Shown here: positions 2,904 to 48,248 of the stretch, piece by piece
How positions within the stretch are numbered: position 1 is the first letter of the stretch
How the letters are laid out: every line of letters begins with the position of its first letter
NCBI GenBank assembly: GCA_035543335.1
Contig: DASZZH010000025.1
Location: 184,185-248,184 of the forward strand
Direction of reading: 5' to 3'
Length of the DNA stretch: 64,000 nt
Origin: Burkholderiales bacterium
GTDB lineage: Bacteria > Pseudomonadota > Gammaproteobacteria > Burkholderiales > JAHFRG01
Notes under the pieces: model-generated
Told to the model about the DNA's origin: nothing
Databases searched by the model: none
What the model saw: the letters and a program-made list of their open reading frames with translations, nothing else
Made by a program: the position numbers and the translations under genes

Positions 2904-3292
2904 TAGCCGGGCTTCTTCTGGATGAACTCAATTTTGTAGCCGTCCGGGTCTTCGATGAAAGCGATCACCGTCGTGCCGTGCTTCATGGGTCCCGCTTCGC
3001 GCGTGACTTTGCCGCCGCGCTTTTTCACTTCCTCGCACGCCCGGTAGGCGTCCGGCACTTCGATGGCGACATGGCCGTAGGCGTTGCCGAGATCATATTG
3101 AGCGGTATCCCAGTTGTGAGTAAGTTCTAGCACCGCGGTGCGGTCCTCGTTGCCATAGCCGACAAACGCCAGCGTGAAACGGCCGTCGGGATAATCGTGC
3201 CGGCGCAGCACTTTCATATCCAATACCTGAGTGTAAAAATCAATCGACCGCTGCAGATTGCCCACACGCAGCATGGTGTGCATTATCCTCAT
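2903..3292 (-). CDS. gloA: Lactoylglutathione lyase (glyoxalase I)
   Basis: [20 protein letters not shown]...HVAIEV...IEFIQ is the typical GloA pattern. The start is placed at the conserved MR(I/L)(M/L)HTMLRV rather than at the longer track ORF. Confidence 0.9.
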
Positions 3293-3302
3293 TCTGGTCC
3301 CT

Positions 3303-3467
3303 TCAGATTTCCACCATCTCAAAATCTTCCTTGCGCGCGCCGCATTCGGGACAGGTCCAGTTTGGCGGAAGGTCTTCCCATTTTGTCCCCGGCGCAATGC
3401 CTTCTTCAGGCAAGCCCGCGGCCTCATCATAGATGAAACCGCAGATCAGGCACATATAAGTTTTCAT
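3303..3467 (-). CDS. Rubredoxin (54 aa)
   Basis: My manual translation gives [54 protein letters not shown], with two CxxCG knuckles. It is below the length cut-off of the ORF track. Confidence 0.85.
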
Positions 3468-4349: not shown

Positions 4350-4720
4350 GGAGCCTCTGATTAAGTCCTTCGTGAGCCGCGTTGCAGACAAAATGCGGAT
4401 GGATGTAAGGCGCGCGACGAAGGTCGTAGCTAGGACTACGACACCGAGGAGGGCCCGCGTAGCGTCGCACCTGCAAAGCTGTGCAGCGAAACGGGTCATA
4501 GCTCGCCGTATTACAGTTTCATGCACGGGCCAGCGCTCGCCTACGCGGTCGCACGTGCCGAGGCTCCACGCTTCGCGAGTCCAAGTCCGGGGCGCCTTTC
4601 CGGGCGGTCTGCTTTGTCGCTCGGCTTGCCAAGGGGAGTGACCCTTGGCTGCGCCTCGCTTCGCGCATCCCCTCCCGGAAAGCCGCCGTCGCAACCACGC
4701 GGGACCTAATCAGAGGCTCC
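4350..4720. repeat. Repeat element E2 (371 bp), same family as E1 but with different terminal inverted repeats
   Basis: 19-bp TIR GGAGCCTCTGATTAAGTCC / GGACCTAATCAGAGGCTCC with 1 mismatch. Shared blocks lie at 4407-4451, 4596-4629 and 4655-4688. It starts one base after the thiD TAG stop. Confidence 0.8.
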
Positions 4721-5334
4721 GTGGTCTTTACGCGATTACGCCCAACGAGGCCGACACTCCAAAGCTGATTCACCAGGTGAAACTCGCGCTCGAAGGCGGG
4801 ACGCGCTGGGTGCAGTATCGAAATAAAAGCGCAAACAACAAGCTCAGGCGGCGACAGGCGGAAGCGCTCGCCGCGTTGTGCAGCCAGTTCGGCGCCGCGC
4901 TCATCATCAATGATGATATCGAACTCACCCGGGCGTGCAATGCGCATGGCGCGCACCTGGGCCGGGAAGACGCATCGCTGGCGACCGCAAGAAGCTTGCT
5001 TGGGAAAAACAAAATCATCGGCGCATCGTGCTATGACCAGATCGAGCGTGCCATTGAAGCCGAAGCGCAAGGCGCGGATTATGTCGCCTTCGGCAGTTTC
5101 CATCCGTCTTCGGTCAAGTCCCACACTGTGCGGCCGCAAGTGCAATTGCTGGCCCAGGCCAGGACAAAACTTTCGGCGCCGATTGTGGCGGTTGGCGGAA
5201 TTACATTGGAAAATGCGGGCGTGTTGATAGAAGCGGGAGCGGACGCCGTGGCGGTCATCAGCGCCTTGTTCAACGCGCCCGACATCAAGACGGCGGCCAA
5301 AAAATTTAACTGCTTGTTTGCCAGCCGGCAATGA
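4645..5334 (+). CDS. thiE: Thiamine-phosphate synthase
   Basis: LRGLYAITP..., VQYRNK, INDD, and GGI..EN are ThiE patterns. The only in-frame start upstream of LRGLY is the TTG at 4645, with an AAGGGGAG SD, and it lies inside repeat E2. The start is therefore uncertain. Confidence 0.85.
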
Positions 5335-6611
5335 CCAACGAGGAATTATTTCAGCGGTCGCAGCAATTCATCCCGGGCGGCGTGAATTCGCCGGTGCGCG
5401 CATACCAATCGGTGGGCGGCGTTCCGCGCTTTATCGCACGCGGCCAGGGCGCGACGGTTTTGGACGCGGAAGGGAAAAGCTATATCGACTACGTCGGCTC
5501 GTGGGGGCCGCTGATAGTCGGCCATGCCCATCCTGAAGTGGTCGCCGCCGTGCAACAAGCGGCGGAACGCGGCTTGAGCTTTGGCGCCCCCACCGCAACC
5601 GAACTGGAAATGGCCGAGTTGCTGTGCAGGTTGGTACCCTCCATGGAGCAGGTGCGGCTCACCAGTTCCGGCACCGAAGCGACGATGAGCGCCATCCGCC
5701 TCGCGCGCGGCTTCACCCAAAGAAGCCGCATTATCAAGTTCGCCGGCTGTTATCACGGCCACGCCGATGCGCTTCTGGTCAAGGCCGGCTCGGGGGCGCT
5801 CACTTTCGGCCAGCCCGATTCCGCCGGCGTGCCCGTCGAGACTGCCGCGCACACTTTGGTACTTGAATATAACGACAGCGCAGCGGTGGAAAAAACCATG
5901 AGCGAATTCGGCAATCAAATCGCCGCGGTGATAGTCGAGCCGGTGGCCGGCAACATGAATCTGGTCAAGCCCAGGCCCGAATTCCTGCAAACGCTCCGGC
6001 GCCTCTGCACCCGACACGGCGTGCTGCTGATTTTCGACGAAGTGATGACCGGATTTCGCGTGGGCCTCGGTGGCGCGCAAGGGCTTTATGCAATCAAACC
6101 CGAACTCACCACGCTCGGGAAAATCATCGGCGGCGGCATGCCGTTGGGCGCATTTGGCGGCAGACGCGACATCATGCAATGGCTGGCGCCCCTGGGTCCG
6201 GTATACCATGCGGGAACACTCTCAGGCAACCCGGTGGCGGTGGCCGCGGGGCTCGCCACGCTTAAACTTGTTCAAGCGCCCGGTTTTTACCAAAAACTTT
6301 CCGGGGTGGCCGAACGTCTCACCGCCGGCTTGAGCGCCGCCGCCCACAAGCACGGACTGGCTTTTTCAGCGCAAGCCGCAGGCGGAATGTTCGGCATTTA
6401 TTTCCGCCCAAACCCGCCGCAAAGCTTTGCCGAAGTCATACAGTGTAACCAAGTCCTGTTTAACCGCTTCTTTCACGCCATGCTCGACCGGAGTGTTTAT
6501 TTTGCTCCTTCGGCGTTTGAAGCCGGCTTCGTTTCCAGCGCGCACGGCGACGAGGAAATCGCCGCCACGCTCGCCGCGGCGGAACAGGTTTTCGCCGGCC
6601 TTAAATCATGA
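5331..6611 (+). CDS. hemL: Glutamate-1-semialdehyde 2,1-aminomutase
   Basis: 426 aa with [19 protein letters not shown] and TLGKIIGGG (PLP lysine region). It overlaps the thiE stop by 4 nt. Confidence 0.95.
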
Positions 6612-7198
6612 CCGTGTTGACCAAGCAGTTGTCGACGTTGAGCCGGGAGGCGTTGCGCCAGCATTTTTTTGCGCTCCCCGCCGACGATATCCGCCTGCGC
6701 TTTGGCAGCAGCATGAGCAGGGAGGGTATCGACACTTATGTTGACAAGATCGATTTCGACCGCGACGCGGTGTTCGGGGTGTTCGATGAAAACCTGCGGT
6801 TGGTCGGGGTCGCGCACCTGGCCCTCGACCCGGAACACGATGTGGCGGAATTCGGGGTGAGCGTTTTGCTCGGCCGTCGCCGGCAGGGCATCGGCTCGGC
6901 GCTGTTTCAGCGCGCCGAGGCACACGCAAGGAACCACTACATCAAGACGCTGTTCATACACTGCCTTACCGAAAACCAGCCGATAATGCACATCGCGCAA
7001 AAATCAGGAATGCGAGTGGTGACGGGCGCCGGCGAATCCGACGCGCATCTGGAATTGTCGCCGCCTGCGCCAGCGAACGTCGTAAGCGAATTGATGGAGG
7101 AACGGGTTGCACTGTGGGACATCGCCATGAAAGCGCAATTTCTCTCGGCGAAAAAGATCGCCCGGGCGATGGCGGGGAAAAGCGAAAGATCAGTCTGA
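6608..7198 (+). CDS. GNAT-family N-acetyltransferase
   Basis: Acetyl-CoA motif [16 protein letters not shown] overlap with the hemL stop. Confidence 0.6.
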
Positions 7199-7199
7199 A

Positions 7200-8345
7200 C
7201 TACAGCGTGCCGTAGGAATGCAGGCCGCTCAGAAACATGTTGACGCCGAGAAAAGCAAACAGGGTGACGAATAGCCCCGCCACCGCCCACCAAGCCAGCA
7301 GCGCTCCGCGCAACCCCTTGACCAAACGGATGTGCAGCCACGCGGCGTAATTGAGCCAAACGATCAAAGCCCAGGTTTCCTTCGGGTCCCACGACCAGTA
7401 GCCGCCCCAGGCTTCCGCCGCCCACATCGCGCCGAGAATGGTGGCGATGGTGAAAAAAGCAAAGCCGATGGCGATGGCCTTGTACATCAAGTCATCCAGC
7501 ACCTCCGCTGGCGGCAGATAAGCGGCCAGTCTGCCTGCCGCCACCAGCAGATAAGCCACGCCTACCATTGCCGCGAGCGAGAACGAGCCGTAGCCGATGA
7601 AATTCGCCGGCACGTGGATTTTCATCCAGTACGATTGCAGCGCCGGCACCAGCGGCTGGATGTGCTGCGCTTCGCGGTCAAACGTGTACCACAAAAGAAA
7701 CCCCACCGCCGCGGTAATCACCGGCAGCACGAAAGCGCCGAGTTGCTTGGTCGCGTAACGCCGCTCGTAGTATAGGTACAACAGCGCAGTGATGATGCAA
7801 AACAGGATGAACACTTCGTACAGATTGCTGATGGGGATGTGCCCCACATCGGCTCCGATGAGATATGACTCATACCAGCGGGTGAGCATGCCGCTCAAAC
7901 CCATCGCCAGCGCGCTCCAGGTCAGGCCGCTGGCCACGCTGCCCGCAAAAGCGGAACGGGCGATAAGCGCAAGCCAGTAGGCAAAGGTCGCCATTACGAA
8001 CAACGCGCTCATCCACATGATGGCGGACTGGCTGGAGAACAGGTATTTCAGCCAAAACACCTGGCCGGCGCGGGCGAGACTGCCCTGGTACTCAAAAATC
8101 GAGAACAGGCTCGCTGCGGCGATGACCATGAGCAGGGTGCGCAGCGGCTTCCAGTACCAGCCCAGGACGCTGAATATCACTACGGCGCCCAAAAGGAAGC
8201 CTTTCTCGTAGGCATCCATGTAGTCGCCGTAGAGGCGCAACGCAGTCACCCCGCCCGTGATGAGCAGCAGCGCGTAGGCCCAGTCGAACCAGGCGAGGTT
8301 CTTGAAGAAAGACCTGCGCGCGGGATAGTCCTGGGTTAACTCCAT
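7200..8345 (-). CDS. ccsA: Cytochrome c biogenesis protein CcsA/ResC (System II)
   Basis: Polytopic membrane protein with the Trp-rich WGGYWSWDPKETWALIVW motif. The start is chosen at the ATG at 8345, just after the ccsB stop. Confidence 0.85.
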   Translation of the reverse strand: MELTQDYPARRSFFKNLAWFDWAYALLLITGGVTALRLYGDYMDAYEKGFLLGAVVIFSVLGWYWKPLRTLLMVIAAASLFSIFEYQGSLARAGQVFWLKYLFSSQSAIMWMSALFVMATFAYWLALIARSAFAGSVASGLTWSALAMGLSGMLTRWYESYLIGADVGHIPISNLYEVFILFCIITALLYLYYERRYATKQLGAFVLPVITAAVGFLLWYTFDREAQHIQPLVPALQSYWMKIHVPANFIGYGSFSLAAMVGVAYLLVAAGRLAAYLPPAEVLDDLMYKAIAIGFAFFTIATILGAMWAAEAWGGYWSWDPKETWALIVWLNYAAWLHIRLVKGLRGALLAWWAVAGLFVTLFAFLGVNMFLSGLHSYGTL

Positions 8346-10440: not shown

Positions 10441-11064
10441 TTAGCGCAGTCCGGAAATGTATTCCGCCACCGCGCGCATTTCCTGGTCGGTGAGCTTGAC
10501 GGCGATGGCGCGCATCATCTTGCTGTTGTCGTCCGCCCGCTCGCCACTCTTGAACGCTCTCAACTGAGCAATCACATATTCCGCGTGTTGTCCGGAAAGG
10601 CGCGGAAACTGCGAGGGAATGCCGGCGCCGTTCGGCGTGTGGCAGCCGGCACAGGCGGGAACGGCCGAGGCCGCATTGCCGCCACGGTAAATTTTCTGTC
10701 CGAGCGCCACCAGCTCCTTGTCCCTGGCCATGCCCGGCTTGGGTTTCTTCCCGCCGAAATAGGCGCCCAGGTTTTTCATGTCTTCTGGTGTAAGATTGGC
10801 GACCATGCCGCCCATCACCGCGCTTTTGCGTTCACCGGATTTGAAACTCAAAAGCTGCTTGGTAAGATACTCGGGATATTGCCCGGCCAGGTTGGGGTTC
10901 GCCGAAATCGTACTGTTGCCGTCCGTGCCATGACAAGCAGCGCAAACTTGGTTCACGATGGGTTGCGCTTTCGCCGGGTCCGCCTCGCGTAACGCAGGTT
11001 CGGCAAAAACGGGAAATACCGCCATCATTCCCGCAGCCGCCACCAGCGCAATGGATGCGTTCAT
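10441..11064 (-). CDS. Dihaem cytochrome c4
   Basis: Signal peptide plus two CxxCH motifs (CAACH, CAGCH), each followed by a distal Met region. Confidence 0.9.
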   Translation of the reverse strand: MNASIALVAAAGMMAVFPVFAEPALREADPAKAQPIVNQVCAACHGTDGNSTISANPNLAGQYPEYLTKQLLSFKSGERKSAVMGGMVANLTPEDMKNLGAYFGGKKPKPGMARDKELVALGQKIYRGGNAASAVPACAGCHTPNGAGIPSQFPRLSGQHAEYVIAQLRAFKSGERADDNSKMMRAIAVKLTDQEMRAVAEYISGLR

Positions 11065-37419: not shown

Positions 37420-38100
37420 TCATTGCCCCTTGATAACCAGCATTGGTCGATGTCTTTCCTCGTCGTAGCTCACGGTGACAAGTTCCAGTGGCTCAGTGAT
37501 ATTGCGATCTGACCCAGTATCTCTCATGCGGAGGGTATGGGCGTCACAGCTCTGAACGACACAATCGCTACGCGTCCGGTAGCGCTGGTCGGCTATGTGC
37601 TCTGTGCTCCCGAGCTTGTGCTGCACACAGATGACTGTGATAGGCCCGCCACGCATGCGAAGGATTGCAGCGACTTTGTCGTTGCGACTTGCAATTAGCT
37701 CTTCAAAGAGCTCGAGAGACGCTGCTACGGACTCTGAACCGCGGCGCACAAAGGCCGGTCCCGAGAAATGCGGGCGGTTCTTGCTGTGAGCAACTACAAC
37801 CGCGAGCACGGGCTTGCCATCTACGTTCAACACCTCTGAAGCAAATGCGATGGGCGGATAACACACGCGTTCGCACTGCTCTCGGACCGTTTTTTGGAGC
37901 TTGTCCGGGTTCTCAACGCCCTGAATCTTTCCGTCGTTGTGTACACCGATAAAGAGAACCCCCGAACTGTCGGGAGGCACACTATTCGCAAATGCTGTGA
38001 TCGTCTGCCTGATCTCGGAGGCATTGACGCCGTCCGGCTTGCGCTCGACGAAGTTGTCCTCGTGATTCTTGAGCCGTCCCGTCAGAGCGTCTTGGGCCAT
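37420..38100 (-). CDS. AlbA_2 (Schlafen-like) domain protein with an unrecognised C-terminal domain, cassette-borne
   Basis: 226 aa. HEDNFVERK...ITAFANS...GVLFIGVHNDGKIQGV...FVRRGSES matches the remembered AlbA_2/PF04326 pattern (ExxxEFK, AFaN, GGxlxiGVxDdGxixG, R.gs.t). The last 90 or so residues are unassigned. Confidence 0.7.
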   Translation of the reverse strand: MAQDALTGRLKNHEDNFVERKPDGVNASEIRQTITAFANSVPPDSSGVLFIGVHNDGKIQGVENPDKLQKTVREQCERVCYPPIAFASEVLNVDGKPVLAVVVAHSKNRPHFSGPAFVRRGSESVAASLELFEELIASRNDKVAAILRMRGGPITVICVQHKLGSTEHIADQRYRTRSDCVVQSCDAHTLRMRDTGSDRNITEPLELVTVSYDEERHRPMLVIKGQ

Positions 38101-38796: not shown

Positions 38797-39770
38797 ATGC
38801 AACCGGCAAAACCCAAGCTGCTTGATCAGGTCCGTGCCGCAATCCGCTGCCGGCATTACAGCCGCCGCACCGAAGACACTTATATCCACTGGATTAAGCG
38901 CTTCATTTTCTTCAATAACAAGCGCCACCCGGAACAGATGGGGGAGACGGAAATTACGGAGTTTTTGAACCACTTGGCCGTCGAGCGTAATGTCGCGGCC
39001 GCTACCCAGAATCAGGCGCTCTCTGCTTTGCTGTTTCTGTACCGCGATGTGCTGGAAAAAAACTCGCGTGGCTTGATCAAATACAGCATGCGAAGAAACC
39101 GGTTCGGCTTCCCACCGTGCTTTCCCCCAGCGAAGTTCAACGGCTACTCTCCGGGCTGGATGGATCAAAATGGTTGATGGCCAGCCTGCTTTATGGCTGC
39201 GGTCTGCGGCTGATGGAATGTTTGCAGTTGCGCGTCAAGGATGTGGATTTTGCCTATCGCCAGATAATCGTTCGCGATGGCAAAGGCGGGAAAGACCGCG
39301 TAACCGTGCTGCCCGAGCGTTTGCTCGAACCGCTGCGCGACCATCTCGGCAAAGTCCGGCTGCTGCATCAGCTGGATCTTGCTTCAGGGCACGGCGATGT
39401 GTATTTGCCGCATGCGCTCTCTGTAAAATACCCGCGCGCCGGCTACCAATGGGGCTGGCAGAATGTGTTTCCGTCGAAAAATCTTTCCGCCGACCCCGAA
39501 TCAGGCGTCATCCGCAGGCATCACCTTGACGAGAAATCCTTGCAACGCGCGGTAAAGCAGGCGGCTACGCGAGCAGGCATTCTCAAGCCGGTAAGCAGCC
39601 ACGTGCTGCGTCATTCATTCGCCACGCACCTGCTGCAAAATGGCTACGACATCCGAACGATACAAGAACTGCTCGGTCACTCTGATGTGAGCACTACCAT
39701 GATTTACACTCATGTGATGAATCGCGGCGGAAAGGGCGTGCAAAGTCCGATTGATGCCCTCCCGCTTTAG
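38797..39770 (+). pseudogene. intI: Integron integrase IntI, disrupted by a frameshift in an A7 run (39056-39062)
   Basis: The N-part KPKLLDQVRAAIRCRHYSRRTEDTYIHWIKRFIFF ends out of frame. The C-part is in another frame with [27 protein letters not shown] and [12 protein letters not shown]...[14 protein letters not shown]. It also carries the IntI-specific insertion [17 protein letters not shown]...[11 protein letters not shown]. Removing one A restores ...[29 protein letters not shown]. Confidence 0.85.
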
Positions 39771-43603: not shown

Positions 43604-43864
43604 TTACCCGGCAGCCAGCCGCTGCCTGACTTCCGCTTCCGAGATTCCCGCAATTTCCACGACCTTCCTCGGCGAAGCGTGACCGGAGGCGATAAGCACT
43701 TGGTCCTTGGGCAAATCAAGCGCCTCGGCCAAAACTTCCCGCACCGCGAAGTTCGCCTTGCCTTGTTCCGGCGCGGCGCTGACGCAGATTTTCAGCGTAT
43801 CGCCCATCCAGCCCGCAACCGCGTTTCGCGAAGACTTGGGCACCACCTTGATTTTGAGTTTCAT
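43604..43864 (-). CDS. DUF167 (YggU-like) protein
   Basis: 86 aa. KVVPKSSRN...[14 protein letters not shown] is the typical DUF167 pattern. ATGA overlap with the upstream macro gene. Confidence 0.8.
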
Positions 43865-44385
43865 GCACGGCGGCCTAAAGCATACAAGCAGGCCCGATAC
43901 ACCGGCTCATCAAAGCACGCGAAATACACCTGCTTTAACGAGCGTTGTTTTTCCAGCGCTTTCAGCGTTTCTCCAGCGGCTATGGCGCAGGCCTGCTCGA
44001 TTGGATAGCCATAGACGCCGCAACTGATGGCGGGGAAAGCCATGGTTTGAATTCCATGCTGAACTGCGAGCTTGAAGCTTTCGCGATAACAGGAAGCCAG
44101 CAGTTCCGGTTCATTGCTCTTGCCGCCTTTCCATACCGGCCCGACCGTGTGAATAACATGCCTGGTTTTCAGGCGATAACCCTTGGTGATTTTCGCCTTG
44201 CCGGTTTCGCAGCCACCCAATGTTCGGCATTCGGCAAGGAGTTCCGGTCCCGCTATGCGGTGGATCGCTCCATCCACGCCGCCGCCGCCGAGCAGCGTAG
44301 TGTTTGCGGCATTGACAATCGCATCCACCTCGAGCTCGGTAATATCGCCTTTTACCACCTTGATTCGATCAGTTGCCGCAAGCAT
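43861..44385 (-). CDS. ymdB: Macro-domain protein (O-acetyl-ADP-ribose deacetylase, YmdB-like)
   Basis: [28 protein letters not shown] and [12 protein letters not shown]. Confidence 0.9.
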
Positions 44386-44389
44386 TGCT

Positions 44390-45454
44390 TCACCCTTCGT
44401 CTTGCACCACCGTGTAGGGATCGGCAGGCTTGTCTGGATTGGTCCGCGTAAGTTTCAGGCTCTGCGGATTGTAGGGCGGGATGCATGATGCCAGGCGCGT
44501 TTCCACGCTCCAATGAACCTTCGGGAATTTGTCGAGGCTGTTTACATCGCGCACTTTTCTTTTGGTGAGCGCCATGATGCCTTGGCGCGAATTGCGCAGC
44601 TCGCCCCAAGGATTGGGTTTCAGCCGCAAATCTGCAAGCGTATTCCCGTCAAACCCGAGTCCGTTTATTTTGGCCTTGGCGATTATCCAATTCAGCGCCA
44701 GATCCGAAAGACCGGTGTCCGCATAACCGCCGCCGACATTCGAATGCACGCCGCAAAACCAGACCTGCTCAATCCCATCGCGGTCATCCCATAAAGTAGG
44801 CATGAATTCCGCGCGCTCCTCGTCCAGCGCCACCGCGTGGTAGCCGTGCCTCACCTGCGGATGAAGAGCGGTGTCATGAAAGCGCTCGATCCAGCGGTTA
44901 ATACCCCTGAAGAAAATCAGCGGGATACCCAGCGCGCCCACGGTATCCCACACGCCTATCATCTCGATGTCAGTATCGTAGGAATGCGCCTGTTTGAACG
45001 CTTTCTTCTCCTCGGCATCGCCGTGGCGGTACACAAGATACGCCTCCTGAATGTTTTGCCTGCGCTCCTGGTCCGGCCAGTTCAGGTCATCGCGCAAAAC
45101 CCCGCACGCCACGATGAATCCGCCCAGACTGCGGGCAGTATAAGCGCCGCGGCTGAAGCCAAACAGGAACAGCCGGTCGCCTGCCTGGTAATTTTTGACG
45201 ATGAACTCATAGCAGTCCTTGATGTTTTCGGATAAGCCAATGCCAAGCAGGCCGCCCAGAATGCGCGTGCCGAAATTGGTGCCCACGCCCGAATCGTAAA
45301 AAAGCGCCTTTCCTTCGCTTTTTGACTCGCGCCCGCTGGTTCCGCCCAGCGCTTTAAAAATCTTGAAAACATTGGTCGGTGCGGGCTTGCCGCGGTCTTT
45401 TTCTGACGGCTTGTTCCAGGTACCGTCGGCGCAAACGATGATATCTTTAGGCAT
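44390..45454 (-). CDS. DUF2235 (Tle1-like alpha/beta hydrolase) protein
   Basis: IVCADGTWN at the N-terminus, nucleophile elbow GFSRGA, and [10 protein letters not shown]. Confidence 0.8.
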
Positions 45455-45521: not shown

Positions 45522-45941
45522 ATGAAAACTCATCGCCAGGAATTGCTATTTAAAACCCCCACCAAGGAAGCGTTCATCAACATCACCCCGCAAGTCGAGG
45601 AAGCGCTGAAGGCAAGCGGCGTCAAGGAAGGACTGGTGCTGGTCAACGCGATGCATATTACCGCTTCGGTGTTCGTCAATGACGACGAGCGGGGCTTGCA
45701 CAGCGACTTTACCCGCTTTCTGGAGGGGCTTGCTCCCCACCAACCCATCAAGCAATACCGCCACAACGACACTGGCGAGGACAACGCCGATGCCCACATC
45801 AAGCGCCAGCTATTTGGGCGCGAAGTCGTGGTTGCAGTGACTTCGGGAAAACTGGATTTCGGCCCTTGGGAGCAGATTTTCTACGGTGAATTCGACGGCC
45901 GGCGTCCGAAGCGGGTGCTGGTAAAAATCATCGGGGAATAG
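45522..45941 (+). CDS. yjbQ: YjbQ/UPF0047 family protein (secondary thiamine-phosphate synthase)
   Basis: 139 aa. [18 protein letters not shown] and [24 protein letters not shown]. Confidence 0.85.
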
Positions 45942-46038: not shown

Positions 46039-46788
46039 ATGAGACTGCATATTCTCAGTAACCTGCACCTGGAGTTAGGCGATTTCGTCCCGCCTGACAC
46101 CAGCGCGGACGCGGTCATTCTTGCCGGGGATATTCATGTGCAGGAACATGGCATTGACTGGGCAGTTAAACACTTTTCGGTGCCTGTCTATTATGTCCTT
46201 GGGAACTACGAGTTCTACGGCGGGCATCTTGAGCGCACGGTGAAGCGGCTCAAGCAAAAAACCGCCGGCACAAACGTACGCGTGCTCGAGTGCGATGAAG
46301 CTATTCAGGAGAACGTTCGCTTTTTGGGCGGCACCTGTTGGACGGACTTCTCGGCAACCGGCAATCTCCAGCTGGCCATGTCGGATGCGCGCCAGACGAT
46401 GAGCGATTACCGCGAAATCCGGGCCGGCATGGGCTTTCGCAAGCTTCGTCCCGAAGACACCCAGAAGAAGCACACCGAATTCAAGGCATGGCTGCGGAAA
46501 AAACTCAATGAGCCCTTTGACGGCAAGACGGTTGTGATTACCCATCACGCGCCATCCATTCTGTCAATTGCGCCCGAATACCTGGACGAGTTCACTCACG
46601 GTAGCGCGGCTTATGTCAACCGCATGGAGCACCTGATGGGCAAGCCGGTTGCGCTCTGGGTGCACGGCCAGACACACAGCAAGTTTGACTATGAGATTTC
46701 GAGTACCCATGTGGTGTGCAACCCGCGCGGCCACCATGGCCTCAGGCTCAACAAGCAATTTGACCCTCGGCTGGTGATAGAGCTTTAA
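46039..46788 (+). CDS. Calcineurin-like metallophosphoesterase
   Basis: Metal-ligand motifs LSNLHLE, AGDIH, GNYEF, THHAP and GQTH. Confidence 0.75.
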   Translation: MRLHILSNLHLELGDFVPPDTSADAVILAGDIHVQEHGIDWAVKHFSVPVYYVLGNYEFYGGHLERTVKRLKQKTAGTNVRVLECDEAIQENVRFLGGTCWTDFSATGNLQLAMSDARQTMSDYREIRAGMGFRKLRPEDTQKKHTEFKAWLRKKLNEPFDGKTVVITHHAPSILSIAPEYLDEFTHGSAAYVNRMEHLMGKPVALWVHGQTHSKFDYEISSTHVVCNPRGHHGLRLNKQFDPRLVIEL

Positions 46789-46809: not shown

Positions 46810-46865
46810 GCGAATTTGACGGCCGCCGCTGCAAAAGGGTACTGGTGAAAATCATCGGGGAGTAA
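46810..46865 (+). pseudogene. Detached copy A of the yjbQ 3' end (56 bp, with its own TAA)
   Basis: It encodes ...[16 protein letters not shown]. It aligns to 45886-45941. Confidence 0.75.
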
Positions 46866-46883: not shown

Positions 46884-47888
46884 TTACGCCAGGAGATACC
46901 GGCCGGACTTTCGCGTACCCTCGCGCTTGACCAAATCCGCTTCCATGAGCGGCCGTAGCAAGTCAATCGCGCCTTGCTTGGAGACACCTAACCCATCCCA
47001 GATTTCCTTGGGACTCATGCTGCCCCGCTCACGAAGCAGTTGCAGCAATTGCTCCTGTTTGGGTCGCAGCACCAGTTTTTTTCCTTTCGACTGAGCCGAC
47101 AGACCTTGCACACGCTTCCAGACCTGCTGGAGTGTCAGCAATAATCCTTCCGCAGCGTATTCCAGCCAAGAGGTCAGATCATCGCCTTGCTGCGGCACGG
47201 CCCGCAGGGCCGCGTAATAACGAGGCCGGTTCTCCCAGTAGTACTCGTCCACCGAGAAAATGTGGTGCGTATCGAACCCGCGCCGGTACAACTCCCATAG
47301 AGCCAGCGCGCGGCCCGTCCGTCCATTGCCGTCAGCGAAAGGATGAATGGCTTCGAACCGATAATGGACGATCGCGGAACTGATAACTGGCGACAATATC
47401 CCCGATGTCTTGTTCCACCATTGCAGAAACTCAAACATGAGACCGGATACCTGCTCCGGCGGCGGTGGCACGTATGAGCCCACTCGAACCTGCGTTGTGC
47501 GGTAGCGTCCTGCCTCTCCCTGGTTCATCACGTTCCCCGCGATGATTTTGTGAAGCTTGAGGACATCCTCGTGGGTGATGAGACTCTTCTTGGCGTGCTT
47601 CTCGAGATGCCGCAGCGCCGCAAAATAATTCAGCACCTCCCGCTTGTCCCGGGTGCTGACCGTCGCCAGTTCGCGGCCCTCCTCAACGGCCCGCACTTGT
47701 TCAAGAGTCAGCGGATTGCCTTCAATCGCCGTCGAGGAGTGCGCGAGGCGTGCCCGCGTGTCCTTCTGCAACGTCGGAATCCAAGGCACTTCGACTGCGG
47801 CGTTCACAATCCAACCCCGCAGCGCCGCTATTTCTTCGACGCGGGTAAGCAACTGCGGGGTGATGGTGAACTTCGGCTGATAGCTCAT
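46884..47888 (-). CDS. Fic-family protein (AMPylase-type) with a C-terminal winged-helix domain
   Basis: Fic motif HPFADGNGRTGRA, an N-terminal inhibitory-helix motif STAIEGN ([ST]xxxE[GN]), and a C-terminal wHTH-like tail. Confidence 0.9.
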   Translation of the reverse strand: MSYQPKFTITPQLLTRVEEIAALRGWIVNAAVEVPWIPTLQKDTRARLAHSSTAIEGNPLTLEQVRAVEEGRELATVSTRDKREVLNYFAALRHLEKHAKKSLITHEDVLKLHKIIAGNVMNQGEAGRYRTTQVRVGSYVPPPPEQVSGLMFEFLQWWNKTSGILSPVISSAIVHYRFEAIHPFADGNGRTGRALALWELYRRGFDTHHIFSVDEYYWENRPRYYAALRAVPQQGDDLTSWLEYAAEGLLLTLQQVWKRVQGLSAQSKGKKLVLRPKQEQLLQLLRERGSMSPKEIWDGLGVSKQGAIDLLRPLMEADLVKREGTRKSGRYLLA

Positions 47889-47908
47889 GGCGCTGAGCTT
47901 ACGCCGTA

Positions 47909-47937
47909 AGTCAAGTATAAGTCAAGTTATCAGTCAA
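47909..47937 (-). promoter_or_regulatory. Three direct TTGACT repeats upstream of fic (candidate promoter or operator)
   Basis: On the minus strand: TTGACTgataacTTGACTtatacTTGACT. The 11-12 bp spacing ends about 20 nt before the fic ATG. Confidence 0.35.
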
Positions 47938-47967
47938 CCTGTGGCTCAAGCAGCGGCAAGACTTGCC

Positions 47968-48117
47968 CTATAGTTCGCCTTTGAACGCATGGTCGAGGAT
48001 GGGAGGAAGCAGAGCGTCGAGTTCGGCGGCGGTTTCGGCTTGCGGACGTTTAAGCTCGTCGGAAAGTCTCAACCGATTCGTTCCCAGAAAGGGAGCGATA
48101 ACCCCCAATTTAGGTAA
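47968..48117 (-). pseudogene. hsdS: Remnant of a type I restriction-modification specificity subunit (HsdS) C-terminus
   Basis: My manual translation gives ...[35 protein letters not shown]. The AF(K/R)GEL ending is characteristic of HsdS. There is no start codon or N-terminal domains. Confidence 0.5.
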
Positions 48118-48130
48118 TTACGACCTAGCT

Positions 48131-48248
48131 GCCGAAGTCGTGGTCGCCGTCACCGGCGGCAAGCTCGACTTCTGGCCCTGGGACCAGATTTTCTACGGCG
48201 AGTTCGACGGCCGCCGCCGCAAAAGGGTGCTGGTAAAGATTATCGGGG
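48131..48248 (+). pseudogene. Detached copy B of the yjbQ 3' part (118 bp, no proper stop)
   Basis: It encodes [38 protein letters not shown]. It aligns to 45819-45936. Confidence 0.75.

Follow-up and report, generated by a model that had tools for sequence, protein, structure and literature searches.

A conserved repeat array precedes a Fic gene of probable restriction-modification ancestry in a Burkholderiales genome

The stretch of DNA analysed here, hereafter the window, corresponds to 64,000 nucleotides (nt) of an assembled Burkholderiales genome (GenBank assembly GCA_035543335.1, contig DASZZH010000025.1, positions 184,185 to 248,184), and carries, on its minus strand, a gene, fic, coding for a Fic protein of 334 amino acids (aa). 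The gene is intact, evolves under purifying selection, and is preceded by three short direct repeats, which are found in front of its homologues in all the loci examined. A remnant of an hsdS gene lies directly upstream, and relatives of the gene are located within intact type I restriction-modification (R-M) operons. It appears fairly probable that fic represents an autonomous, self-repressed and probably leaderless Fic AMPylase module, whose ancestors were embedded in such operons. In an original prediction, the same gene had been described as a possible SoFic-like defence gene, selectively retained from an R-M locus degraded at this site.

The Fic gene and its product

The gene and the motifs recognized in its product are the following.

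46884 to 47888, minus strand: fic gene, coding for a class II Fic protein (AMPylase-type, 334 aa) with a winged helix at its C-terminus (open reading frame list, Pfam, PADLOC hidden Markov model)
47310 to 47345, minus strand: Fic active-site motif H182-PFADGNGRTG-R193, HPFADGNGRTGR (direct reading of the sequence)
47715 to 47735, minus strand: inhibitory-helix motif S52-T-A-I-E56-G-N58, of the form (S/T)xxxE(G/N) (direct reading of the sequence)
46887 to 47063, minus strand: C-terminal winged helix-turn-helix (wHTH) domain, residues 276-334 (weak Pfam HTH matches, AlphaFold model, Foldseek)

The 334-aa protein matches the Pfam family Fic (PF02661) with an E-value of 2.2e-22 and a score of 80 bits, the cut-off being 24, and contains, within the Fic fold, the HxFx(D/E)GNGRxxR signature of the Fic/Fido superfamily. 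When aligned with 32 homologues, the 12 residues of the active-site motif are invariant, with the exception of R190, which is nearly so. The inhibitory motif is located on the same chain, about 125 residues N-terminal to the catalytic histidine, as is characteristic of class II Fic proteins; in the same alignment no variation is seen from S52 to G57, and almost none at N58, and the motif aligns with TVAIEGN of FICD and with the motif of the PDB entry 4rgl.

The C-terminal region gives weak matches to the Pfam families MarR_2, MarR and HTH_24 (residues 276-330), all below the cut-offs of these families, and many homologues carry precomputed matches to the HTH families PF13412 or PF12802. An AlphaFold model, obtained from a shallow alignment, is of modest quality (overall predicted local distance difference test score, pLDDT, of 65), and its use was restricted to the winged helix and to a coarse matching of folds. 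Residues 276-334 are predicted, with a pLDDT of about 80, to form a helix-helix-helix-beta-beta winged helix (helices 276-288, 293-300 and 304-316, and two strands), a topology found in the Fic-wHTH autoregulators CccR and SoFic. All the significant matches, obtained by comparing the model with the PDB by Foldseek, are Fic proteins; those extending over the full length form a Fic-plus-wHTH group, which is headed by 4rgl and includes C. burnetii Fic2 (8cil), SoFic of S. oneidensis (3zcn, 3eqx) and 7xux, an entry that, from its release date, we take to be CccR. A sequence search of the PDB also places 4rgl first (E 9e-31, residues 2-321), followed by the core of FICD (about 1e-30). An intact Fic protein with a canonical active site, the intramolecular inhibitory motif STAIEGN and a winged-helix-like tail had all been anticipated by the original prediction, and are borne out by these data.

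The ratio of nonsynonymous to synonymous substitution rates (dN/dS), calculated against seven homologues, is about 0.1 (approximately 0.06-0.11), with dS above 1 and synonymous sites near saturation. The G+C content at third codon positions (GC3) of fic equals that of the neighbouring genes. The low dN/dS, the high dS and the neighbour-like GC3 together lead to the conclusion that fic is functional and has not arrived recently.

Repeats and putative promoter upstream of fic

Two elements were recognized in the region preceding the start codon.

47909 to 47937, minus strand: three direct TTGACT repeats, proposed operator (47932-47937, 47920-47925 and 47909-47914; start-to-start spacing of 12 and 11 nt)
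47896 to 47901, minus strand: putative -10 hexamer TAAGCT, lying between the middle repeat (18 nt away) and the ATG (7 nt away)

The three TTGACT repeats, which had already been noticed, are real, and they constitute a conserved cis element. The triple pattern occurs once in the window, where 0.02 occurrences are expected by chance, and repeats are found directly upstream of the fic homologue in all of the 30 loci examined, from Betaproteobacteria, Verrucomicrobia, Planctomycetes, Kiritimatiellales, Lentisphaerae, Aminicenantes, Acidobacteria, Omnitrophota and Poribacteria (related loci are indicated below by L numbers). The 34 nt from the first TTGACT to a TTACGG sequence are identical in the window, L001 and L009, whereas the coding DNA is just 74-75% identical; since this identity is preserved while the coding DNA has diverged, with synonymous sites near saturation, the repeat element is strongly constrained.

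The position of the array relative to the gene is also regular, as a TTGAC starts at -35 to -37 from the start codon in each of the 30 loci. In 17 of them, a TAnnnT hexamer precedes the start codon by 6-7 nt, and 29 lack any Shine-Dalgarno-like motif. In the window, the middle repeat, placed as a -35 box would be, the 18-nt spacer and the TAAGCT hexamer could form a sigma-70-type promoter, with its start point at the ATG; the outer repeats would then fall at about -47 and inside the spacer. Because of the hexamer 6-7 nt before the start and of the lack of a ribosome-binding site, the mRNA would be leaderless.

The number of repeats rises to four in L023. In L038, a TTGAC triple repeat (6828-6856) is located about 400 nt downstream of a partial fic match, covering residues 184-334 only; the locus also holds hsdR, hsdM and hsdS, and a second or rearranged fic unit may be present.

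On the proposed mechanism, the winged helix would bind the direct CTTGAC(T/C) repeats (three, or four in one locus), which overlap the predicted promoter of the gene itself in all of the 30 loci, and this binding would keep fic expression low. E56 would hold AMP transfer off until a trigger relieves the inhibition, and the released enzyme might AMPylate an essential host protein and cause growth arrest, as for SoFic and CccR. As to the origin of the module, it may be traced to the recurrent home of the family, between hsdS and hsdR; the hsdS tail of about 30 codons, described below, would be the scar of this R-M ancestry.

Family distribution and association with type I R-M genes

More than 7,700 database clusters, from at least nine phyla, match the Fic protein of the window. 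The best 120, the window's own cluster excepted, are 76-83% identical to it, and almost all of them are exactly 334 aa long. About three quarters of the sampled family loci stand alone, with no trace of hsd genes. Close homologues found on long contigs are of this type, and their neighbours vary, including an efflux pump and Usp, toxin-antitoxin genes, sulfatases, arrays with RidA and AAA_14 genes, and ffh. When the two nearest open reading frames (ORFs) on each side were considered, in 29 loci, type I R-M families turned out to be the only recurrent neighbours.

Relatives that are 60-70% identical are found, within intact type I R-M operons, in the interval from hsdS to hsdR; the arrangement mentioned in the original prediction does exist for this family. 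An example from a species-representative genome set is L024, on an Aminicenantes chromosome, where hsdM, a small ORF, hsdS, fic and hsdR are followed by Shedu, the repeats are located between hsdS and fic, and the fic stop codon overlaps the hsdR start. The same fic-hsdR layout is shared by L018, L025 and L026, and L019 contains fic and a truncated hsdR; in all five loci the end of fic overlaps or abuts the beginning of hsdR. The order hsdM-hsdS-fic is found in L030 and L031, the downstream HsdR of L030 being of the EcoR124 and not of the EcoEI type. All together, the embedding is complete in L024 and L030, and partial in L018, L025, L026, L019 and L031. A scrambled locus, L047, contains fic, an HsdR-like gene and an hsdS tail.

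The slot between hsdS and hsdR is occupied by PrrC in the EcoprrI locus. The fic genes of L024, L018, L025, L026 and L030 are found between hsd genes, in the same slot as this anticodon nuclease, which is an enzyme of a different class; in the window, fic is not placed between hsd genes and the R-M system is absent. The Fic-wHTH protein might, in its native slot, act as controller and guardian of the type I R-M system, and the window copy would then be a controller-toxin that has outlived it; this seems unlikely. In the role of controller, it would act through the TTGAC-repeat promoter, from which fic and hsdR would be transcribed together as a leaderless mRNA; the wHTH domain would set both the timing and the level of HsdR, as C proteins do in type II systems. 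In the role of guardian, the Fic domain would act on an Hsd subunit by modifying it, or else serve, like PrrC, as a back-up toxin that is triggered once restriction has been disabled by a phage. Genes found inside type I R-M loci often belong to defence systems, as in the case of TgvAB, a relationship indicated as 'guilt by embedding' (PMC11411939; bioRxiv 10.1101/2024.01.29.577857).

Rearranged material was also observed in L018, where an HsdR N-terminal fragment (67 aa) and a second hsdS tail (33 aa) are located at 2940-3261, between a Schlafen/HATPase_c_4 gene and fic. This second tail is 88% identical to the tail of the intact upstream hsdS; together with the HsdR fragment, it suggests that embedded genes have been exchanged in the interval from hsdS to hsdR. 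A GIY-YIG domain is present in the hsdR located downstream in L018. Genes of the AlbA_2 family adjoin the fic/R-M loci L018 and L047.

The hsdS remnant

A fragment of hsdS lies upstream of the repeats, in the same orientation as fic.

47968 to 48117, minus strand: hsdS 3' remnant, 49 codons (47971-48117) and a stop codon (47968-47970) (sequence comparison)

The HsdS-like part is limited to the last 30 codons or so (47971-48060), which end with the ...AF.GEL pattern of the HsdS C-terminal helix; the first 19 codons, approximately, gave no match in the comparisons made. Taken alone, the remnant has no Pfam, PADLOC or NCBIfam match, and the target-recognition domains (Pfam Methylase_S) are absent, which qualifies it as a fragment and not as a gene. 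A PDB search, with E-values up to 10, retrieved only two chains, both HsdS subunits, aligned to their last 29 residues with an E-value of 0.01. Three significant matches (E 6e-4 to 1e-3) were obtained by tblastn in a plasmid collection, and correspond to two annotated HsdS genes and to one unannotated, near-identical record. A search of a large protein database with the 49-aa remnant identified six short proteins (P0121-P0126), sharing the same tail at 81-90% identity, and retrieved no full-length HsdS. In one of these, P0122 (74 aa, from a 791-nt contig), 25 of the last 30 residues are identical to the remnant (83%); P0122 reads PVPPLVEQRRIVAELD upstream, and matches positions 124-164 of 168 of Pfam Methylase_S weakly (E 0.005), a match that falls short of the cut-off.

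As the PDB, plasmid and P0122 comparisons all point to HsdS, the remnant is regarded as a true HsdS C-terminus. The original prediction had assigned all 49 codons to HsdS: this stands for the last 30 or so, and not for the other 19, which match nothing. It had also named a lack of alignment to HsdS in profile searches as a possible refutation; profiles were silent, and the relationship to HsdS emerged from the PDB, plasmid and protein-database comparisons. Its statement that hsdM, hsdR and most of hsdS are gone is confirmed, since tblastn with HsdM, HsdS and HsdR finds, in the 64-kb window, no match other than the tail.

A second case of a short hsdS tail, located before fic in a non-R-M context, is found in L023. 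ORFs coding for HsdS tails were also observed in the two other contexts examined: after a PQQ protein and before a polysaccharide deacetylase, and after an HsdR-like gene (L047, 4105-4305).

Relation to SoFic and to other Fic proteins

SoFic is an anti-phage family reportedly described by Millman et al. in 2022, its tested members being EcSofic of E. coli H397 and SO_4266 of S. oneidensis. Like the window protein, SoFic is a single-gene class II Fic protein, with an N-terminal inhibitory helix, a canonical loop and a C-terminal winged helix, and its structures 3zcn and 3eqx match the fold of the window protein over the full length. The PADLOC SoFic model PDLC03963 matches the window protein with an E-value of 5.7e-61 and 204.9 bits, over positions 54-346 of 361 (81%), this being the raw score of the model. 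In the PDB sequence search, SoFic (E 1.5e-11) and E. coli Sofic 9vjc (E 5e-14) match the Fic core only. The window protein has 334 aa, against 358-372 for SoFic; EcSofic is accompanied by a small downstream gene, AS1, whereas no AS1-like gene is found with the window fic. Unlike SoFic, the latter has a proposed operator of direct repeats and belongs to a family linked to type I R-M. The window protein is most aptly described as a SoFic-like Fic-wHTH protein belonging to a distinct subfamily, in which the nearest member of solved structure is 4rgl.

This closest solved relative, the Dde_2494 Fic protein of Desulfovibrio G20, is about 28% identical to the window protein, and the alignment of the two takes in the YQPxxTITP segment near the N-terminus, as well as the inhibitory motif and the C-terminal domain; the entry comes from structural genomics and has no assigned function. 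FICD/HYPE and C. elegans Fic-1 align over the catalytic core and the T/S-x-A-I-E-G-N motif (residues 44-231, E about 1e-30), but differ in being eukaryotic proteins of the endoplasmic reticulum, with TPR domains, without a winged helix, and with another biology.

Functional data are available for proteins of similar architecture. SoFic binds its own promoter (100 bp before the start codon) and AMPylates EF-Tu; its deAMPylation of EF-Tu is constitutive, and a function in growth regulation has been proposed for it (bioRxiv 10.64898/2026.07.09.737422). EcSofic is toxic, an effect that requires its C-terminal domain and is countered by the small downstream protein AS1 (PMC12249575). CccR of Yersinia pseudotuberculosis shares with the window protein the two-domain layout, in which Fic is joined to a DNA-binding domain at the C-terminus; the latter represses the CccR promoter from binding sites near -35 and -10, and the protein is toxic via AMPylation, FtsZ being AMPylated (PMC9755527). 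CccR differs from the window protein in being secreted by a T6SS (type VI secretion system), as well as in having N in place of D/E in the Fic motif.

The Fic-wHTH architecture, common to 7xux, and the presence of a Tle1-like (DUF2235) gene at a distance of 1.4 kb would be compatible with a secreted interbacterial effector, delivered by a T6SS as CccR is. Such a role is very improbable, as neither T6SS nor VgrG nor PAAR genes were seen near fic, in the window and in 29 related loci, and the DUF2235 gene lies beyond yjbQ and is unlinked to fic in other loci.

Evaluation of the proposed role

A defence role for the window fic is plausible. It is suggested by the match to the PADLOC SoFic model, by the embedding of relatives in R-M operons, by the Shedu neighbour, and by the frequency of defence genes within type I R-M loci. 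In this genome, the gene may be annotated as a single-gene module of SoFic type, probably acting in defence or as a toxin and bearing an R-M scar, rather than as a broken locus. Proteins of the Fic-wHTH kind are already known, and the window gene adds a member of a distinct SoFic-like subfamily. The interest is larger at the level of the family, which is very large, occurs both inside type I R-M operons and alone, and combines an unusually clear proposed operator, an apparently leaderless promoter and a coupling to hsdR. It may offer a convenient system for studying the link between DNA binding and AMPylation in Fic-wHTH proteins, and the reasons for the presence of embedded toxins beside hsdR.

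Several results weigh against the interpretation of fic as a self-repressed, leaderless module with a SoFic-like role. The NCBIfam SoFic equivalog NF046030 scores 77.3 bits, against a cut-off of 550, and orthology to the tested SoFic proteins fails; identity to these proteins is only about 20% in structural alignment. The original prediction of a SoFic-like defence gene is supported as to the likeness, by the 205 bits of the PADLOC model; orthology to the tested proteins is not supported. The operator of CccR is made of two inverted 10-bp boxes, 26 bp apart (PMC9755527), and is unlike the three direct repeats, 11-12 bp apart, found here. A generic scan for promoters and terminators did not call the fic promoter, because the -10 hexamer of the window matches at just 3 of 6 positions. 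In 10 of the 30 loci, mostly from Verrucomicrobia (L018, L019, L020, L022, L023, L032-L035 and L037), the array is about 12 nt nearer to the start, so that a TTGACT sits at the -10 position, replacing TAnnnT; in three further loci the repeat at this position is degenerate or the hexamer is not of the TAnnnT type. The simple promoter model does not explain, in total, 13 of the 30 loci. In addition, most stand-alone copies are found among ordinary metabolic genes, and not in defence islands. No close relative is present in 2.9 million viral contigs, the best Fic protein being at most 37% identical, a result that is neutral as to defence and is counted here on the negative side. Carriage of the subfamily by phages was considered and dropped, as the viral contigs hold only such distant Fic proteins (up to 37% identical).

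Some of these features would suit a physiological regulator, that is, a transcription factor combined with a reversible AMPylase/deAMPylase, which tunes translation or growth (for example through EF-Tu), represses itself and takes no part in the response to phages. The closest similarity of the catalytic core is to FICD, which both AMPylates and deAMPylates by means of the same TxAIEGN glutamate, and the constitutive deAMPylation of EF-Tu by SoFic, with the growth regulation proposed from it, goes in the same direction (bioRxiv 10.64898/2026.07.09.737422). Most stand-alone copies lie among housekeeping genes, and the saturated synonymous divergence and host-like GC3 indicate a long-resident gene. 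Against this stands the patchy spread of the family, across phyla at 60-80% protein identity and in varied contexts, which is typical of an accessory gene; the sole recurrent neighbours are type I R-M genes, Shedu adjoins the operon of L024, and the PADLOC SoFic model matches. A purely physiological function is judged rather doubtful.

Class I Fic toxins and Doc are the toxins of toxin-antitoxin systems. They provide a precedent for a selfish addiction or stabilising toxin, an autoinhibited Fic protein whose loss or dilution would harm the cell, stabilising the R-M operon or the piece of DNA that carries it. EcSofic, toxic and countered by AS1, could be quoted in its favour (PMC12249575), together with the persistence of fic where its neighbours have been lost. 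A partner is however missing: only 18 nt separate the fic stop codon from that of the next element, a partial copy of yjbQ (copy 2, see below), no small ORF is conserved beside fic across loci, and an intramolecular inhibitor offers no obvious unstable antidote. An addiction function is quite unlikely.

Bracketing of fic by copies of the yjbQ end

The region between yjbQ and glmS, in which fic is located, contains three copies of the 3' end of yjbQ.

45522 to 45941, plus strand: intact yjbQ (UPF0047) gene, its 3' end (45821-45941) being copy 1 (Pfam UPF0047, E 1e-36; 139-aa product called in two other assemblies)
46810 to 46865, plus strand: partial copy 2 of the yjbQ 3' end, provided with a separate stop codon, between the phosphoesterase gene and the fic piece (direct-repeat family D2, three-copy alignment)
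48133 to 48248, plus strand: partial copy 3 of the yjbQ 3' end, 116 nt, on the glmS side of the fic piece (repeat families D1 and D2, alignment, Pfam UPF0047 positions 79-117 of 117)

The two partial copies are 86% alike, and each is 78% identical to the end of the intact gene. From yjbQ to glmS, copies 1 and 2 enclose a phosphoesterase gene, and copies 2 and 3 the fic piece. The fic piece, of 1.27 kb, comprises fic, the repeats and the hsdS tail, and its distance from the flanking yjbQ copy does not exceed about 20 nt at either end. The interval from yjbQ to glmS was found to contain no recombinase or integrase gene, and the surroundings of the locus no tRNA, tmRNA or Rfam family as a candidate attachment site. 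An identical yjbQ-glmS layout is found in two other assemblies of the same organism, identified by exact look-up of YjbQ. Insertion of a Tn7 element at glmS was considered and rejected, as there are no transposase genes between yjbQ and glmS, and glmS is separated by 33 nt from the ORF of yjbQ copy 3.

The bracketing fits a repeated insertion at the yjbQ end, followed by trimming, or a single-crossover insertion of circles carrying a homologous anchor. It does not fit a simple erosion in place of an R-M operon, one of two remaining possibilities. According to the latter, a whole type I R-M island, including fic, would have existed at this site, hsdM, hsdR and most of hsdS would have been deleted, and fic would have been kept by selection. 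The hsdS tail is indeed directly upstream of fic, on the same strand, and purifying selection acts on fic, whose neighbours have disappeared; a graded series may be drawn from an intact operon (L024), through a truncated hsdR (L019) and a tail with fic (window, L023), to fic alone, and an integrated island would leave duplicated ends of its target gene. The window contains, however, no fragment of hsdM or hsdR, and the stretch from yjbQ to glmS contains no integrase; the deletions would have had to end precisely at both borders, given the distance of about 20 nt from the yjbQ copies, and the adjacent phosphoesterase gene is bracketed likewise, without any trace of R-M. HsdS tails 81-90% identical are found in other, unrelated contexts, which implies that such tails travel with, or survive, rearrangements generally. 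The layout is the same in the two other assemblies, and hence no intermediate is available. Decay at the site is, on the whole, somewhat unlikely. The degradation in place with selective retention, put forward in the original prediction, is not upheld, in view of the yjbQ 3' ends bracketing the fic piece and of the three quarters, approximately, of the sampled family that stand alone without hsd trace.

A parallel is provided by L009, where the 3' end of RidA and the 5' end of a deaminase gene are each present three times, and a RidA tail directly precedes the fic repeats. The deaminase 5' and RidA 3' copies (3404-3457, 6355-6408 and 10661-10714; 4644-4722, 6777-6855 and 7838-7916) are 81-94% identical, and alternate with genes for AAA_14/DUF4143, DUF433/DUF5615, a zeta-like kinase, Fic, Mrr and a 2'-5' ligase. 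As in the yjbQ case, small pieces with duplicated gene ends on either side follow one another, here in an array. The duplications of yjbQ, and those of RidA and deaminase in L009, hint at how small accessory genes may gather beside housekeeping genes.

The closest Fic homologues, 82% identical, are located after ffh, and not beside yjbQ. In L044, a 33-nt palindromic sequence at the end of ffh (5704-5736) is repeated, at 88% identity, after a 2.4-kb insert (8102-8134); the insert contains the closest fic homologue (82% identical) and a 271-aa gene without assigned function.

Neighbouring genes

The phosphoesterase gene (46039-46788, plus strand) codes for a 249-aa calcineurin-like metallophosphoesterase (Pfam Metallophos_2, E 2e-6), is alone between yjbQ copies 1 and 2, and has no PADLOC match. 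Three genes are found directly upstream of yjbQ and divergent from it (43861-45454, minus strand), coding for a Tle1-like/DUF2235 hydrolase (354 aa), a Macro-domain protein (174 aa) and an 86-aa PF1765-like protein, the last of which is also called in other assemblies of the same organism. This trio may be another accessory insert. Just before argS, a 226-aa Schlafen/AlbA_2 ORF (37420-38100, minus strand) and a 217-aa ORF of the phage integrase family, probably truncated (39117-39770, plus strand), were also observed.

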